From positions 1-64,000 of IMG/VR virus record IMGVR_UViG_3300037141_000279: 64,000 nucleotides of DNA. One strand, given 5' to 3'. The DNA is from a virus. Shown here piece after piece: positions 19,324-63,241 of the stretch. The position numbers and the translations under genes were made by a program. The notes beneath the pieces were generated by a model. That model did not search any database and was not told the DNA's origin. It saw nothing but the letters and a program-made list of their open reading frames with translations. Each line of letters opens with the position of its first letter. Within the stretch, counting starts at the first letter, position 1.

Positions 19324-19546
19324 CCCGCTCAATGTGGAAATTGTCCTTGAGGAATTTGTGGTAGTGCTCTCCCTGGCTGGGCGCTGCCATAAATTCCTGG
19401 TAGTGCTCGGGCGAAACTCCGTGAACCGCATACTGATACCCATTCTGATACCGCACGGTCATCTTCCGCTCGTGTGAATCGTACTTCGCTCCGTCAATGT
19501 GACCACTGCTGATCGGCGTGAATCCATCAAATCTGTGTGCTGACAT
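19316..19546 (-). CDS. KTSC domain protein
   Basis: SSGHIDGAKYD....MTVRYQNGYQYAVHGVSPEHYQEFMAAPSQGEHYH matches the KTSC pattern. Confidence 0.85.
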   Translation of the reverse strand: MSAHRFDGFTPISSGHIDGAKYDSHERKMTVRYQNGYQYAVHGVSPEHYQEFMAAPSQGEHYHKFLKDNFHIERVK

Positions 19547-19562
19547 AAATCCTCCAGAAAGT

Positions 19563-19591
19563 AAAAGAGGGGAGCCTTTTGGGCTCCCCTC
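19563..19591 (-). terminator. Rho-independent terminator ending the tmRNA coding piece
   Basis: GAGGGGAGCC-CAAAA-GGCTCCCCTC-TTTT. Confidence 0.85.
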
Positions 19592-19985
19592 CTCGGCTGT
19601 TTAGGCCGCCATCGCATACTGCCGTGCAGGAACCACGACAGCGCGCTTGGCGAACATCACAACCTGTGCGAGTTTGTTTTTCGCATTTATGGTTTGATCT
19701 AGTTTTACGTCGTTGTCAGGACGGCACGAGCCCTCGGCCACTTGTCTCAAAGAGCGAAACCCAGTTCAGGCCCACCGTACCGCACACTTGTTAGATTCCT
19801 CAGACCTTTGGTCAGAGAAAACATCTTTGATGTGCGGCAGGGTGGACCTGGGCAGATTCGAACTGCCGTATCTCTGAGAAGCCACCGATTATTGACGTGC
19901 GTAATTTAAGGTCGCCGTCCTATTCGCGTGTGACGCAGACATGTGTCCACAGTTATTGACGCGTGTTAACTGCACGACCAGCTTT
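19563..19985 (-). ncRNA. ssrA: Circularly permuted (two-piece) tmRNA: acceptor piece ending 19841, intervening segment 19840-19774, coding piece 19773-19563; 5' boundary of acceptor piece uncertain (up to ~20201)
   Basis: T-arm GGCAG-TTCGAAT-CTGCC plus CAGGTCC-A-CC precedes the 5' end GGGCCTG (7-bp acceptor stem with G3.U70). P2 helix TCTTTGAGA/TCTCAGAGA, AAGT/GCTT, GCCGA/TCGGT. Resume context ATAAAT-GCG; tag frame 19684-19601 ends QYAMAA*. Confidence 0.92.
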
Positions 19986-60208: not shown

Positions 60209-60586
60209 CTATTCAAAAAGAATGGTGTTGATTCCTAAATCTGCGCACGCTCGCAAGAAACCTTTTTGTTCTGGTTCGACGATAGACGCTAGTGCGTAGG
60301 TCTCACTCTCGCTTAGTTGGCGCATCGTATGGGTGTTGGCGGGCATAGCGTTAATACTGAGTGCACCTTTACCCCCATTGCACTCTCTACAGGCTGTGAT
60401 GTAGTTGCTGAGAGAGTCAGGACCACCGTTCGCCTGCGAAACCATGTGGTCACACTCCAGCGACACCTCTGGCGGTTTTCTGCCGCAGTATTGACAGGTG
60501 AAATTATCCCGCTGAAGGGTCAGAAAGCGGTCTCGTGGTCTGATACACATAAATGATATTCTACTCCGATTCCTTGCCAAAGTCAA
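60209..60586 (-). CDS. HNH endonuclease
   Basis: RDNFTCQYCG...LECDHM...GG.D..SNYITACRECNGGK. Confidence 0.9.
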   Translation of the reverse strand: MTLARNRSRISFMCIRPRDRFLTLQRDNFTCQYCGRKPPEVSLECDHMVSQANGGPDSLSNYITACRECNGGKGALSINAMPANTHTMRQLSESETYALASIVEPEQKGFLRACADLGINTILFE

Positions 60587-61736
60587 ATTCGTCCAGTTGT
60601 TTTCTCTCTAACAGCATGTCCCGCAGTTCAGGCTTGTTCGCGCAGATGCCTCGCATGCTGCAATTTTCACATTTATTGTTGGGCCAGCGCACGCCTGATT
60701 GCATGGGCCAGAATTCCTTTTCATTCGCCGCCGCGATGTTGATCACGTCGCGCTTGATGGACCGCCCGATATCCTCGGCGCTGTCGGGAGTGATGACGGC
60801 GCTCTTGAATTGCACGCGCTGCTTGGTGAGTGTGTTCGCCAGCACATGTTTGCCGTGAAGTGAGATGTACTCCGTTTTTGCCGCCTCCACCGCTTTACTT
60901 TTGCCGACGAACAACGTGTTCATTTCCTCTTCGACCTTGGGGTCTGCTGTGACCCAGATGCCGAAATCATCTTTCGCCATGACAGTCACAGCAGTTCCAG
61001 GCAGAAGCCCTGCGTACGGCTCCAGCATTGTCGCGGCATCTCCCTTGGAAATCTCGCGACCCATTTTGCGGAACCACAGGAACGCGACGTTCGGGTAAGA
61101 CTTCACCCAGGAGTAGCTGCGAAGCTGCGGGTCCATCACAGTCAACTCGGGTACATCCTTGCCCGACGTTTTGATGTCGATAATGAGCGGTTGACCGCCA
61201 GGGACGACAGAACTTGAAGTTGGTTTCGTTTCAGCAATCAAGTCGATATACGACGTGAATTCAATCCCTGCCAACTTTGTGCCTGGGAAAACTTCAAAGT
61301 CGGTTTGGACTTGAAAATCCTGCGGGTTGTTCACGACGTACGGAAATGTCGGGTAGAGAATGGCGTATAGCTTGATCAGTTCCTGCCCTGTGCGGTTCAA
61401 GCTATCCCAGTCACGGTCGGTTTTGGAATATTGGTAGCGAATGATTTTCGGCTGACCCTCTGCGGGCTCCACATCCTTGTGCTCGGCCCACAGGCGGACG
61501 AATTCGGCGACAGCGCCCGCGACATCAAGACGGCGCTGGTGATAGAACGTGATGCCCTTCTCCAGCGCGATGCCGAAATGTGTGGACGACCGCTGCACTT
61601 TCTCGGCCCAACCCTGCACGCGCTCAAGGTAATATTTCCTCGCACAATAATTGAAAGAATCGGACCCGCTGTAGGAATGGCGGGTGACGAAAAATCCCTT
61701 ACTGTTGATGTAAAGATGTGGCTTCATTGTGCTCAT
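60561..61736 (-). CDS. PD-(D/E)XK exonuclease (RecB/Cas4-like)
   Basis: HSYSG..F..CARKYYL, IDLI, IIDIKT, QLRSY, C-terminal CENC....C. Confidence 0.85.
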   Translation of the reverse strand: MSTMKPHLYINSKGFFVTRHSYSGSDSFNYCARKYYLERVQGWAEKVQRSSTHFGIALEKGITFYHQRRLDVAGAVAEFVRLWAEHKDVEPAEGQPKIIRYQYSKTDRDWDSLNRTGQELIKLYAILYPTFPYVVNNPQDFQVQTDFEVFPGTKLAGIEFTSYIDLIAETKPTSSSVVPGGQPLIIDIKTSGKDVPELTVMDPQLRSYSWVKSYPNVAFLWFRKMGREISKGDAATMLEPYAGLLPGTAVTVMAKDDFGIWVTADPKVEEEMNTLFVGKSKAVEAAKTEYISLHGKHVLANTLTKQRVQFKSAVITPDSAEDIGRSIKRDVINIAAANEKEFWPMQSGVRWPNNKCENCSMRGICANKPELRDMLLERKQLDEFDFGKESE

Positions 61737-62317
61737 TTTACCCCTCGCTGAACCAAAGAATCAATGCCTCGTTGAATGAATGTGGAAAAGTCACACAATG
61801 CTTGATAGTATACCATCAAAACCTGCTGTATTTCATTTTGGTCCCAGGTAGGGTCCTCTTTTGCCGCCAACAGTAACTCCATCTTCCCTTGCACAAATTT
61901 GAGCCTCTCTTTCGCCATGCTCAAGCATCGGGTGTCGCCCACATTCAGCGGGGTCAGGGAGATTTCCAAAGATGGAGCTTCGGTATTTTCATACCCCTCT
62001 GGGTTGAACGGGGTGTCTGGATTGTCGGAACTTGATGGAGTTGGGGTGATAATCCCTACCGACTCTTTGTATCTATCTATCCAGTAATAAGCGGTTTTGG
62101 GAGGAATCCCCACTTTATGCCACATTGCATAAAGTCCAGGCTCTCCTCGACGGTTCCCTTGTTTCTTCAATGTTTGCTGCCAATCAAAATTCACGCGGCC
62201 AAAAGCCAGCCCATGTTTGTCCGTGGATTGATATGCCAGCCATGCCGCTTGGATTTGCTGTTCGGCGAGAGTTTGGTCAGTATCCTGCATGTTTGGAATT
62301 TCGGCAAGGTGTGTCAA
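61733..62317 (-). CDS. Hypothetical protein
   Basis: Probable start MQDTDQ; GIPPKTAYYWI HTH-like segment. Confidence 0.55.
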   Translation of the reverse strand: MTHLAEIPNMQDTDQTLAEQQIQAAWLAYQSTDKHGLAFGRVNFDWQQTLKKQGNRRGEPGLYAMWHKVGIPPKTAYYWIDRYKESVGIITPTPSSSDNPDTPFNPEGYENTEAPSLEISLTPLNVGDTRCLSMAKERLKFVQGKMELLLAAKEDPTWDQNEIQQVLMVYYQALCDFSTFIQRGIDSLVQRGVK

Positions 62318-63191
62318 AGTAAGGTAGCCCCCTCTCTAAGTCTTTCACGTAGGCGATCTTGCCTGATTCCTTTTTCATGACGGCAGACCCATCTGCCAAG
62401 GCAGCGTGAAGTTTTTGAGCGATACCGATTCGCTCCGTAGGGATTTTCGGCACCCAAACCCATCGGGTTCCGTGGCGGTGTTTCTCTTCCCGAAGGATTT
62501 TTTTGTCTTCGGGGACCTGATTCCAAAAATCAGGCTCGGAATGGTAGTTGTTGTATTGGTCTAAATTGCGAATGGGATACCGCCGCCCGTTCCACCAAAT
62601 CGCTTTTGTTTTCAGAACCTCTTTGACTTTATGAAACCCAGTGGCTCGATATATCAAACCTGTGTGTTTTCCGTCAGGATGGTCGGCACGTACTTCGTTC
62701 GGGTCGGCGTAGCTGAGGACCCGCTGGATTCCCTCTTGTCGGAGAAGTCGAAACATCACACTAAGCACTCGACTCTCGCTGTTTTTAGGGGCGGCGTCAA
62801 GAAGCACTAATCTCCGCAATTCAACAAGGCGCAGATTCCCATTACCGTTGTATTTACGTAGAGTTTGAGTCTGACCTGGAATTCCAAAAATCGCCGCCCC
62901 AAGCATTCGACCTGTCTGTTTATTAACCACCCGATAAGTATGCGTCGGAGTCATACCTTTGGCTGAGTGAGTGTAATGGTGCGCCACAACAAAAGCCGCA
63001 GCTTCTCGGGCAGAGCACGGCTCGACACAGAATTCTGGAAGTTTTTGTTGACTACCTCCGCTATGGTGTTTGTGAAAATGTTTTTTCCGTTGGTTGTTGG
63101 ACGGAAACACAAGACTGCAAACCTCACAAATATGGAGCGGAGGAGGCGGAATCGAACCGCCGTCCACGATAGGACTCGTGTGCTCTGCCAT
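62277..63191 (-). CDS. mom: Mom-family (GNAT-fold) DNA-modification protein with an N-terminal C2H2 zinc finger
   Basis: FVVAHHY, GAAIFG.P, ELRRLVL...PKNSES..LS, VLSYADP...HTGLIYRATGF; CEVC-X12-HFHKHH. Confidence 0.8.
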   Translation of the reverse strand: MAEHTSPIVDGGSIPPPPLHICEVCSLVFPSNNQRKKHFHKHHSGGSQQKLPEFCVEPCSAREAAAFVVAHHYTHSAKGMTPTHTYRVVNKQTGRMLGAAIFGIPGQTQTLRKYNGNGNLRLVELRRLVLLDAAPKNSESRVLSVMFRLLRQEGIQRVLSYADPNEVRADHPDGKHTGLIYRATGFHKVKEVLKTKAIWWNGRRYPIRNLDQYNNYHSEPDFWNQVPEDKKILREEKHRHGTRWVWVPKIPTERIGIAQKLHAALADGSAVMKKESGKIAYVKDLERGLPYFDTPCRNSKHAGY

Positions 63192-63205
63192 TAAACTACC
63201 TCCGC
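63133..63205 (-). tRNA. tRNA-like element (aberrant 6-nt anticodon loop GTCCTA) overlapping the SD and start codon of the mom-like gene
   Basis: GCGGAGG/CCTCCGC-T-CCA acceptor, D-arm GTTT-AATGGCA-GAGC, stem CACGA/TCGTG, T-arm GGCGG-TTCGATT-CCGCC. Confidence 0.75.
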
Positions 63206-63212
63206 ACTACCT

Positions 63213-63241
63213 ACTTTATCAAACCGATGCAGGGATGTCAA
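63213..63241 (-). promoter_or_regulatory. Sigma70 promoter initiating at the 5' end of the tRNA-like element
   Basis: TTGACA-17-TAAAGT-7nt-G(63205). Confidence 0.75.

Follow-up and report, generated by a model that had tools for sequence, protein, structure and literature searches.

Non-canonical tRNA-Gly look-alikes that travel with phage Mom genes: candidate private glycine carriers, one of which contains the start of the mom message

The window analysed here, a 64,000-nt stretch (positions 1 to 64,000 of the viral record IMGVR_UViG_3300037141_000279), carries near its end a mom-like gene on the minus strand, the first codons of which lie inside a tRNA-shaped RNA. The features of the gene and its leader are the following.

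63213..63241, minus strand: predicted sigma-70-type promoter (TTGACA at 63241-63236, 17-nt spacer, TG-n-TAAAGT, -10 hexamer at 63218-63213)
63133..63205, minus strand: tRNA-Gly-like element, 73 nt (ARAGORN, folding, covariance model R1, family alignment and covariation)
63199..63203, minus strand: GGAGG, an SD-like sequence and at the same time nt 3-7 of the 5' acceptor strand, 7-nt spacer to the ATG
63189..63191, minus strand: ATG in the D loop (element nt 15-17), codon 1 of the 304-aa ORF
63170..63175, minus strand: 6-nt 'anticodon' loop GUCCUA with the conserved CC
63144..63161, minus strand: T arm with 5 nt on its 5' side and 6 nt on its 3' side
62277..63191, minus strand: Mom-family ORF, 304 aa from the D-loop ATG (PF25680)
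63108..63110, minus strand: GTG at codon 28 as alternative start, GAGG lying 11 nt before it, 277-aa product (gene-caller version P0001)
63066..63128, minus strand: C2H2-like motif C-x2-C-x12-H-x3-H, residues 22-42 (alignment)
62484-63032, minus strand: Mom domain, residues 54-236 (Pfam PF25680)
61733..62317, minus strand: downstream ORF with a probable ATG at 62290 and a 14-nt overlap with the mom stop

The product of the ORF is Mom, as judged by Pfam, profile search and predicted fold, which agree with one another. Its PF25680 score is 79.1 bits (E 4.8e-22; the family cut-off is 27.1), and a six-frame search of the 96-kb record (79.7 bits) returned this ORF as the sole Mom match. A profile search was needed to reach Mom of phage Mu (PDB 8bv8, E 2e-4); the only match of a single-sequence phmmer search of PDB was spurious, a His-tagged sigma factor. 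The AF2 model has a mean pLDDT of 79, rising to about 90 from residue 49 onward and over the domain. Foldseek places 8bv8_A at the top of its PDB matches (E 1.5e-9, TM 0.57 by target length), followed by other GNATs. Mu Mom is thus assigned by all three approaches to the same enzyme family, and equivalents of its essential residues are present: in the 8bv8 profile alignment, R127 aligns with Mu R111 and is invariant among homologues, and S140 aligns with Mu S124 (Ala in the crystal), the position being Ser or Thr in 24 of 24 alignment rows. Mu residues are numbered from the M107-S124 stretch given in the paper on that enzyme.

Upstream, the element overlaps the first 19 codons of mom, and the ORF reads MAEHTSPIVDGGSIPPPPL across the tRNA body. 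The 73 nt are composed of an acceptor stem GCGGAGG/CCUCCGC, a D arm with GG, a 5-bp stem capped by the 6-nt loop GUCCUA, a T arm GGCGG-UUCGAUU-CCGCC with one extra base, a discriminator U and an encoded CCA. ARAGORN reports c[63133,63205] as tRNA-???, 73 nt, with a two-base 'anticodon' (cc) in the loop GUCCUA, a UCCA end and an extra U that separates the T stem from the 3' acceptor strand. The isolated element folds as a cloverleaf of -29.4 kcal/mol, compared to a shuffle mean of -21.8 (sd 3.2, z -2.3), with 5 of 200 shuffles folding as well. No Rfam family reaches its gathering score at this site; the only match at a permissive threshold is a 19-bit partial tmRNA over the T arm. A canonical elongator tRNA-Gly has a 7-nt loop with U33, NCC and a purine at 37, and a regular T stem stacked directly on the acceptor; the element departs from this by its 6-nt loop and by the extra base where T stem and acceptor meet. 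It occurs once in the record, and the same phage encodes a separate, normal tRNA-Gly(UCC) at 79676-79749. ARAGORN also finds other tRNA genes with encoded CCA in this phage, and a tmRNA gene is present in the record.

The promoter has 10 of 12 consensus matches and an upstream TG, and its -10 hexamer ends (63213) 7 nt before G1 of the element (63205), so that transcription is predicted to start at or adjoining G1. A promoter of equal score is found at 0.3% of random locus positions. The same geometry recurs in the related loci L025, L023, L047, L002 and L003, whose -10 hexamers end 6-7 nt before nt 1 (9-11 of 12 matches, null frequency ≤0.007 each), and L121 likewise has a promoter at the start of its element; a promoter at nt 1 is predicted in six independent loci. 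An ATG equivalent to the D-loop ATG, preceded at 6-8 nt by an SD-like acceptor strand, is present in L025, L023, L047, L038, L041, L036 and L126. A first-pass annotation of this DNA, made from the letters, had already described these parts, namely a cloverleaf with CCA whose nt 1 lies at about the promoter +1, a D-loop ATG preceded by an SD within the acceptor stem, a loop of 6 nt and an extra base, all of which are confirmed. Its placement of the translational start at the D-loop ATG is borne out in L025, L038 and L047, which lack a 32-aa insert of the window protein and in which that ATG or a start farther upstream is the sole canonical start before the Mom domain. For the window itself the GTG, 23 nt past the CCA of the element, is also a possible start of mom.

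Is the cloverleaf more than a chance fold? In 20 related elements, 97.4% of the cells pair, compared to 74% in shuffles, and 17 of 21 pairs have changed on both sides. The covariation score is 0.598, versus 0.17 for shuffled alignments (reached by 0 of 500) and 0.09-0.15 with slid partners; the alignment was fitted to the structure of the model, so that this structure is somewhat favoured. These results confirm that the cloverleaf of the window is real, conserved and covarying, and they answer the question whether homologues with a GGSxP N-terminus keep it with covariation: they do.

Conservation is not evenly spread. Three acceptor pairs, G1-C72, C2-G71 and G3-C70, and the discriminator U73 do not vary in any of the 20 aligned elements, whereas pairs 4-7 of the acceptor stem covary freely; the window carries GCGGAGG/CCUCCGC followed by U. 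A GCG start is found in 106 of 110 motif-found elements, and although our first regular expression demanded GCG, the model-only members L014, L019 and L022 and the motif set did not. The CC of the middle loop is kept in 20 of 20 aligned relatives and in 99 of 102 motif-found elements. Thus the tRNA-Gly identity set (G1-C72, C2-G71, G3-C70, U73 and loop CC) is conserved family-wide, mostly without a loop of the decoding type: the middle loops mostly measure 3-6 nt and have lost their decoding features. The extra base in the T stem is a hallmark of the family (consensus CCG-A-CC). Relatives have CCG-A-CC, CCG-A-UC or CC-A-GCC on the 3' strand, and the window has CCGCC plus U opposite GGCGG. ARAGORN recognises only 6 of 20 elements in one set and 18 of 122 in another, mostly with an undetermined anticodon.

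We then asked how closely the RNA is tied to Mom. In homologous loci fetched by protein, an element adjoins the Mom gene in 25 of 48 (21 distinct elements), always on the strand of mom. For the proteins most similar to that of the window (P0002, P0004, P0008, P0012, P0014 and others), overlap with the tRNA is suggested by their N-terminal peptides. In the reverse direction, the RNA motif GGCGG-N7-CCGACC-N4-CGCTCCA alone retrieved 120 viral loci, and a Mom match lies within 1.5 kb in 100 of these, in every case on the same strand. The unbulged version of the motif, used as control, has Mom nearby in 4 of 95 loci (Fisher p 4e-35), and none of the 28 canonical tRNA-Gly genes among the control loci has Mom nearby. 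About 17% of the motif loci and about half of the protein-fetched loci lack a partner in the contig DNA examined, for which contig ends are partly responsible. A motif modelled on the window, GGCGG-N7-CCGCC-N5-CGCTCCA, was dropped as unspecific, since 17 of its 18 viral matches are not ARAGORN tRNAs and Mom is near one. A single-protein locus search of viral contigs, an alignment-based locus search of genome contigs and a blastn search of phage records each gave no match.

With respect to position, 97 of the 100 motif-found elements with Mom lie 3' of mom. Elements upstream of a separate SD and start codon are found in L003, L031, L026 and L121, and those of L042, L045 and L040 lie entirely within the ORF. 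Strand and position relative to mom are fixed across proteins that are 27-68% identical. We also considered L024 as a decayed, still-translated embedded copy and rejected it, its DNA similarity score of 24 being within the shuffle range (mean 18, max 36). An A/U-rich stretch often follows the CCA of family elements.

That Mom uses the glycine of a charged tRNA on DNA was shown only recently. The study of the Mu enzyme (Silva et al., Nat Commun 2026, PMC13219725; bioRxiv 10.1101/2023.03.24.534169; PDB 8bv8) reports that Mom transfers glycine from Gly-tRNAGly to N6 of dA, that it accepts all three E. coli tRNAGly isoacceptors and rejects Gly-tRNAAla, and that it probably reads the acceptor end (PMC13219725). 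Mu relies on the ordinary isoacceptors of its host and has no tRNA gene beside mom, whereas the window phage brings an element of its own; no mention of phage-borne tRNA-like genes beside Mom homologues was found in PMC13219725 or bioRxiv 10.1101/2023.03.24.534169. A Mom-linked tRNA-Gly-like RNA was first seen by McMurdie et al. (BMC Genomics 2011, PMC3146451), who described a tRNA-Gly-like 'pseudo-tRNA' within the first 150 bp of a mom homologue in the ssrA islands of Dehalococcoides. By description its arrangement matches that in the window: a conserved tRNA-Gly-like locus of about 76 bp is embedded at the 5' end of the gene for a Mom homologue some 270 aa long. That pseudo-tRNA belongs to integrated bacterial islands, was given no function, and predates knowledge of the co-substrate of Mom.

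Another precedent for the chemistry comes from staphylococci, which keep non-proteogenic tRNAGly for Fem transferases (Rietmeyer et al., NAR 2021, PMC7826273). NP1-NP3 of S. aureus and S. epidermidis are donors for FmhB, FemA and FemB: extra tRNAGly that can be charged by GlyRS, escape EF-Tu and the ribosome, and feed an aminoacyl-transferase of the GNAT fold. By analogy, Mom-linked elements may share this logic while differing in lineage. The deviations are not the same: NP1-NP3 are altered in T-stem base pairs and have a UGC T loop, whereas Mom-linked elements have a bulged T stem and short loops. NP1-NP3 serve peptidoglycan as acceptor, are bacterial chromosomal genes and do not overlap the ORF of their transferase, whereas the acceptor of Mom is DNA. 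The affinity of EF-Tu is set by the first three T-stem pairs (PMC7826273), and the bulge of the family falls within these pairs. Indirectly, the window element can be likened to a non-proteogenic tRNAGly through its retained identity nucleotides and the position of the bulge among those three pairs.

What could such an RNA be for? A Gly identity set that is kept, mostly in the absence of a decoding-type loop, and the published finding that Mom uses Gly-tRNAGly are together best explained by a private glycine carrier. The best explanation of the family is that non-canonical tRNA-Gly look-alikes travelling with Mom-family genes are widespread in phages, and we favour, with a fair amount of doubt, the view that the window element is one of them, a private non-ribosomal carrier of glycine for the adjacent Mom. 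According to this proposal, the RNA would be transcribed from its own promoter, beginning at G1, and freed by a cut after the CCA. Glycyl-tRNA synthetase of the host would charge it, no class II aaRS core having been found in the record, and the odd anticodon loop and the bulged T stem would keep it off EF-Tu and the ribosome. The adjacent Mom would then take the glycyl group to hypermodify N6 of adenine in the phage DNA. The mom message begins with this RNA in the window phage and in close relatives of it, an arrangement that should hold down the synthesis of Mom.

Several observations speak against a private carrier. Mu Mom works with ordinary host tRNAGly, so that a carrier of this kind is not strictly needed. 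GlyRS may find C35 and C36 poorly placed in a 6-nt loop. Release of the RNA removes the start codon of mom, or in other arrangements cuts the ORF, which makes for a costly design unless the partition is itself useful. The loci without a partner, partly contig ends, also count here. Should the proposal be correct, these elements would join the staphylococcal cell-wall tRNAs as the second natural example of tRNAs reserved for chemistry outside the ribosome; among viruses, and for the modification of DNA, they would be the first. They would provide a sequence marker for locating Mom-type hypermodification systems, account for hundreds of 'pseudo-tRNA' calls on viral contigs, and offer natural tRNA variants in which charging is separated from decoding. 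The window arrangement is a testable case, a tRNA containing the RBS and start codon of the enzyme that it would serve.

In the window the acceptor strand doubles as the SD and the D loop holds the start codon, so that the same transcript can end up as carrier RNA or as translatable mRNA. Because the element holds the RBS and start codon of mom, the making of the tRNA and the translation of Mom probably compete in this phage. Two repeats within the coding region bear on this competition.

63051..63061, minus strand: exact repeat of element nt 1-11 (GCGGAGGUAGU), in frame and 144 nt farther downstream (direct repeat D1)
63009..63018, minus strand: 10-nt exact complement of D-arm nt 17-26, in the mom coding region (inverted repeat I1)

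The copy at 63051-63061 pairs with transcript nt 63-70 in the MFE structures at 160, 200 and 260 nt and is thereby predicted to act as a decoy that captures the 3' acceptor strand; the complement at 63009-63018 is paired in those at 200 and 260 nt. The predicted alternative fold breaks the cloverleaf with a ddG of 9.6 kcal/mol at 200 nt, a value reached by 0 of 200 shuffles. It leaves nt 1-16 free at 200 nt but not at 260 nt, where the SD is paired again, and it was not seen in the six other loci of the same arrangement. For window transcripts of at least 160 nt the thermodynamic prediction favours the non-tRNA fold, which also counts against the carrier: the tRNA would have to form and be cut co-transcriptionally. 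Together, the decoy and the D-arm complement are predicted to pull long transcripts from the tRNA fold into the mRNA fold. One could imagine that the cloverleaf forms first and hides the SD, and that decoy and D-arm complement then strip off the 3' acceptor strand, exposing SD and AUG. That the leader is such a bistable RNA, splitting one transcript between a glycine-carrier look-alike and the mRNA of the Mom that consumes it, is a tentative suggestion from these models and a rather doubtful one; if true, a race between folding and processing would determine how much carrier is made per enzyme and how much of a toxic enzyme is produced.

Might the element instead be a purely cis-acting tRNA mimic, never released or charged? 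Structured 5' leaders that hide or abut the RBS of a gene for a tRNA-handling or toxic product are known from E. coli thrS and from Mu, where translation of mom is controlled by a hairpin that is opened by the Com protein. The window leader would likewise work as a translational operator by hiding the SD, and its opening or closing would depend on a factor that recognises the tRNA-Gly shape (Mom, GlyRS or a nuclease). An SD in the acceptor stem and an ATG in the D loop, at a spacing of 6-8 nt in at least seven loci, are in keeping with this, as are the promoter +1 at nt 1 and the alternative fold of the window, which frees nt 1-16. Folding predictions leave the SD stretch largely base-paired in 7 of 7 loci of this arrangement (P(unpaired) 0.01-0.42); in the window the mean for nt 3-8 is 0.17 for the element alone, 0.42 at 160 nt and 0.02 at 260 nt, and the AUG is 0.43-0.81 unpaired. 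The thrS leader and the com-mom hairpin are partial tRNA mimics with a defined protein effector, whereas the window leader is a complete cloverleaf with a CCA end, and most of its relatives are outside a leader position. A mere hairpin lock needs neither the GlyRS identity set nor the CCA end, and the restriction of the alternative fold to the window and the re-pairing of the SD at 260 nt argue in the same direction. Because 97 of 100 elements are 3' of mom, where no RBS is hidden, and several 5' ones precede a separate SD and start, the lock is a minority arrangement, and we consider a solely cis-acting role unlikely. The lock of the RBS that the first-pass annotation had proposed is thus partly upheld, as a predicted property of seven loci; it does not extend to the family as a conserved feature, nor does it explain the tRNA shape, the family being tied to Mom also where a lock is impossible. 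The release by anticodon-nuclease cleavage that the annotation also suggested finds no support in these results.

A tRNA shape could also be a handle for processing or stability: RNase P or 3' tRNA-processing enzymes, once recruited by it, would define or protect the ends of the mom mRNA, and the excised RNA would have no role. Elements sit exactly at the 5' or 3' ends of the mom ORF, often with A/U-rich sequence after the CCA. We regard this as improbable: it leaves the invariant Gly identity nucleotides and the conserved CC loop unexplained, a promoter at nt 1 makes 5' processing unnecessary, and in overlapping arrangements the cuts would destroy the ORF. In the tufB operon of E. coli, tRNAs and an mRNA arise from one transcript, but there the SD and start codon of the next gene lie outside the tRNAs, whereas the window element includes them.

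Less probable still is a tRNA-Gly that decodes, whether in the ordinary way or in a special one such as doublet-reading frameshifting, or a pseudogene in decay that overlaps the ORF by chance, even though the phage has other tRNA genes with encoded CCA and ARAGORN finds the element. The 6-nt loop, the extra T-stem base and the lack of an Rfam gathering score at the site are at odds with decoding, as is the lack of Mom linkage of the canonical tRNA-Gly genes, and oddities that are conserved with covariation across distant phages are not those of a decaying gene. A frameshift fusing mom to the downstream ORF was rejected, as the junction needs +1 and doublet reading gives -1, the wrong direction, and a plain ATG/TGA overlap is present. 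An integration-site remnant, be it a phage attP site or a piece of a host tRNA left at the end of a prophage, is scarcely credible and was rejected: phages often integrate into tRNA genes and the record has a tmRNA gene, but the element is whole rather than a 3' fragment, is present as a single copy with its own promoter and phage genes on both sides, and keeps its place and strand beside mom across the divergent proteins.

Two minor features of the window gene may be added. The C2H2-like motif sits within the 32-aa insert, which is confined to this phage in the homologue alignment and gives weak zf-met and zf-C2H2_4 matches (E 0.02-0.03, below cut-off); with pLDDT <50 for residues 1-46, the AF2 model lends the motif no structural support. 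The downstream ORF is homologous to the C-terminal half of Mom fusion proteins of 418-454 aa in relatives, with 39% identity to P0014 (E 7e-38).

The window covers nt 1-64,000 of a 96.3-kb IMG/VR virus record (estimated completeness 97%). On its minus strand, at 63205-63133, ARAGORN reports a tRNA of 73 nt whose type it leaves undetermined; no Rfam family reaches its own gathering threshold at the element. Folded in isolation, the element forms a cloverleaf of -29.4 kcal/mol (z = -2.3 against shuffles). Its parts and the adjoining signals are as follows.

(-), ending 7 nt before element G1: promoter-like site TTGACA-17-TG-n-TAAAGT, from a sequence scan
(-), acceptor stem: GCGGAGG/CCUCCGC, 7 bp, perfect
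(-), element nt 3-7: GGAGG (SD)
(-), D arm: contains GG
(-), element nt 15-17: ATG of a 304-aa ORF, the remainder of the tRNA being translated through
(-), middle hairpin: 5-bp stem and 6-nt loop GUCCUA
(-), T arm: GGCGG-UUCGAUU-CCGCC, then one extra U
(-), 3' end: discriminator U and encoded CCA

The ARAGORN call, the fold, the promoter scan and the ORF reading bear out in full the anatomy that the first-pass annotation had described for this leader.

The ORF carries the only Mom gene of the record, with a Pfam Mom match over residues 54-236 (79 bits, cut-off 27). A profile built from 24 homologues retrieves phage Mu Mom (PDB 8bv8), which is also the top structural match (E 1.5e-9) of an AF2 model that is confident from residue 49 on and lacks confidence for residues 1-46. 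By alignment, in the numbering published for Mu Mom, the essential Mu R111 corresponds to the invariant R127 of the window protein, and Mu S124 to S140, which is Ser or Thr in every row. Translation may start at ATG 63191 or at GTG 63110, the latter being the gene caller's choice for its 277-aa protein P0001, 23 nt past the CCA. A 32-aa insert, which in the homologue alignment occurs in this phage only, lies between the peptide coded by the tRNA and the Mom domain. It bears a C2H2-like pattern, CEVC-x12-H-x3-H (63066-63128, minus strand), which would be translated only from a start inside the tRNA; Pfam gives the pattern sub-threshold matches only, and AF2 gives the region no confidence.

Is the element a peculiarity of this phage? 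Homologues 45-68% identical start with peptides of the type M-[AV]-E-[QH]...GGS[IN]PxP-SLQ, which read as a translated D loop, T arm and UCCA end. Among 48 loci fetched via the homologue alignment (21 viral, 27 metagenomic), 25 have a related element adjoining mom (21 distinct sequences), always on the strand of mom; most are missed by standard tRNA finding. Across 20 elements in a model-based alignment, itself fitted to the model, 97.4% of paired cells are complementary (74% when shuffled), 17 of 21 pairs show changes on both sides, and the covariation score is 0.598, as against 0.17 for shuffled alignments and about 0.1 with slid partners. Acceptor pairs 1-3 and U73 are fixed throughout and pairs 4-7 covary freely; our first regular expression demanded GCG and CCA, yet elements found by the model only have the same acceptor. 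The middle loop always has CC in this alignment, and one extra base in the 3' strand of the T stem recurs across the related elements.

More divergent forms occur as well. A 103-nt variant (L002:919-1021, also L028 and L029), not caught by the covariance model, keeps the acceptor stem and UCCA end, has additional UUCG-capped hairpins in place of the D and anticodon arms, and has a strong promoter at nt 1. Three distant loci (L014:3081-3156, L019:845-912, L022:983-1059) have Mom-linked elements without an encoded CCA, other bases following the discriminator U. These would depend on a CCA-adding enzyme, and ARAGORN assigns two of the three to tRNA-Gly (GCC and CCC).

The placement of the element relative to the mom ORF follows four arrangements (ARRANGEMENTS).

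Arrangement I, SD and ATG within the element: window, L025, L023, L047, L038, L041, L036, L126
Arrangement II, separate SD and start 7-21 nt past the CCA: L003, L031, L026, L121
Arrangement III, entire element within the ORF, start upstream: L042, L045, L040, L152 and others
Arrangement IV, element at or over the mom 3' end: the majority of loci

No canonical start was found between element and Mom domain in L025, L038 and L047. Promoters with the -10 hexamer ending 6-7 nt ahead of nt 1 are present in the window, L025, L023, L047, L002 and L003 (null frequency of each at most 0.007), and L121 has one too. The metagenomic locus L036 encodes two Mom-family paralogues; the first (60-755) has a tRNA-like element with a D-loop ATG at its 5' end, the second (1507-2151) has none.

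We also queried IMG/VR with the RNA motif alone (GGCGG-N7-CCGACC-N4-CGCTCCA), which occurs at 120 or more loci. Among the matches listed, Mom lies within 1.5 kb at 100 of 120, always on the same strand and in 97 cases 5' of the element. A control motif without the extra base has Mom this close at 4 of 95 loci (Fisher p 4e-35); its canonical tRNA-Gly genes have Mom nearby at 0 of 28, and the elements at the five control loci with a Mom match anywhere (four within 1.5 kb) are again non-canonical. In the motif set, again among the matches listed, 106 of 110 elements start with GCG, 99 of 102 middle loops have CC, these loops are mostly 3-6 nt long, and ARAGORN detects 18 of 122.

What might such an RNA do for Mom? 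The features conserved family-wide (G1-C72, C2-G71, G3-C70, U73, C35, C36) are those that we take to be the tRNA-Gly identity set of bacterial GlyRS. Decoding features have been lost. Mu Mom moves glycine from Gly-tRNAGly onto adenine N6 of double-stranded DNA, accepting all three E. coli isoacceptors and rejecting Gly-tRNAAla, the acceptor end probably being what is read (Silva et al., PMC13219725; preprint 2023). EF-Tu affinity is set by the first three T-stem pairs (PMC7826273), among which the family's extra base falls. The phage also owns a normal tRNA-Gly(UCC), in a cluster of four canonical, CCA-encoding genes beyond the window (Thr(UGU), Gly(UCC), Met(CAU), Ala(UGC); G000:C1:79557-80487 of the same record, minus strand), and no aaRS core was found in the record. 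Taken together, these points suggest that the element is most likely a private, non-ribosomal glycine carrier for Mom, which would be expressed, processed, charged and used as such. It would then resemble the staphylococcal non-proteogenic tRNAGly, a tRNA-Gly kept for non-ribosomal use.

The first-pass annotation had instead proposed that the cloverleaf locks the mom ribosome-binding site. For arrangement I, structure prediction has the SD stretch largely paired and the AUG largely open, so tRNA folding and translation start should be mutually exclusive, and a cut after the CCA would remove the mom start codon. For this lineage a lock is therefore plausible; it does not explain the family, since the majority of its members lie outside leaders. 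An elaboration, that the window leader is a bistable RNA, we consider unlikely. The 5' acceptor strand recurs 144 nt downstream as an exact, in-frame copy of 11 nt, and the coding region contains 10 nt complementary to the D arm. In thermodynamic prediction, which takes no account of tRNA tertiary structure or of folding kinetics, the minimum-free-energy fold at 160, 200 and 260 nt pairs the 3' acceptor strand with this copy rather than with its proper 5' partner. The 200-nt fold frees nt 1-16 and is better by 9.6 kcal/mol than any fold keeping the acceptor stem, a gap that none of 200 shuffled versions of the downstream sequence attains (mean 0.8, sd 1.5). In the 260-nt transcript the SD is again predicted to pair, and six related loci lack such a predicted fold.

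A comparable arrangement has been described in Dehalococcoides genomic islands, where a mom homologue has a tRNA-Gly-like locus, reported without a function, embedded in its first 150 bp (PMC3146451), at the 5' end as in the window. The Mom papers make no mention of phage-borne tRNA-like genes, and our full-text searches found no paper linking the two.

Elsewhere in the record, a permuted two-piece tmRNA gene lies at 19601-19900 (-) (Rfam RF04321, 63.4 bits; ARAGORN span 19510-19932), with the predicted tag AKNKLAQVVMFAKRAVVVPARQYAMAA; it may belong to the phage, or to host flank making up the left part of the record. Next to mom, a 194-aa ORF (61733-62317, minus strand) with a weak HTH match is homologous to the C-terminal half of Mom fusion proteins of 418-454 aa (P0005, P0007, P0014, P0015; 39% identity, E 7e-38). 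In the window it is a separate gene, its ATG (62290) overlapping the mom stop by 14 nt. Directly downstream of this pair, a PD-(D/E)XK nuclease-family ORF (60561-61736, minus strand; PF12705, E 5e-9) could serve the modification gene as a restriction-like partner.
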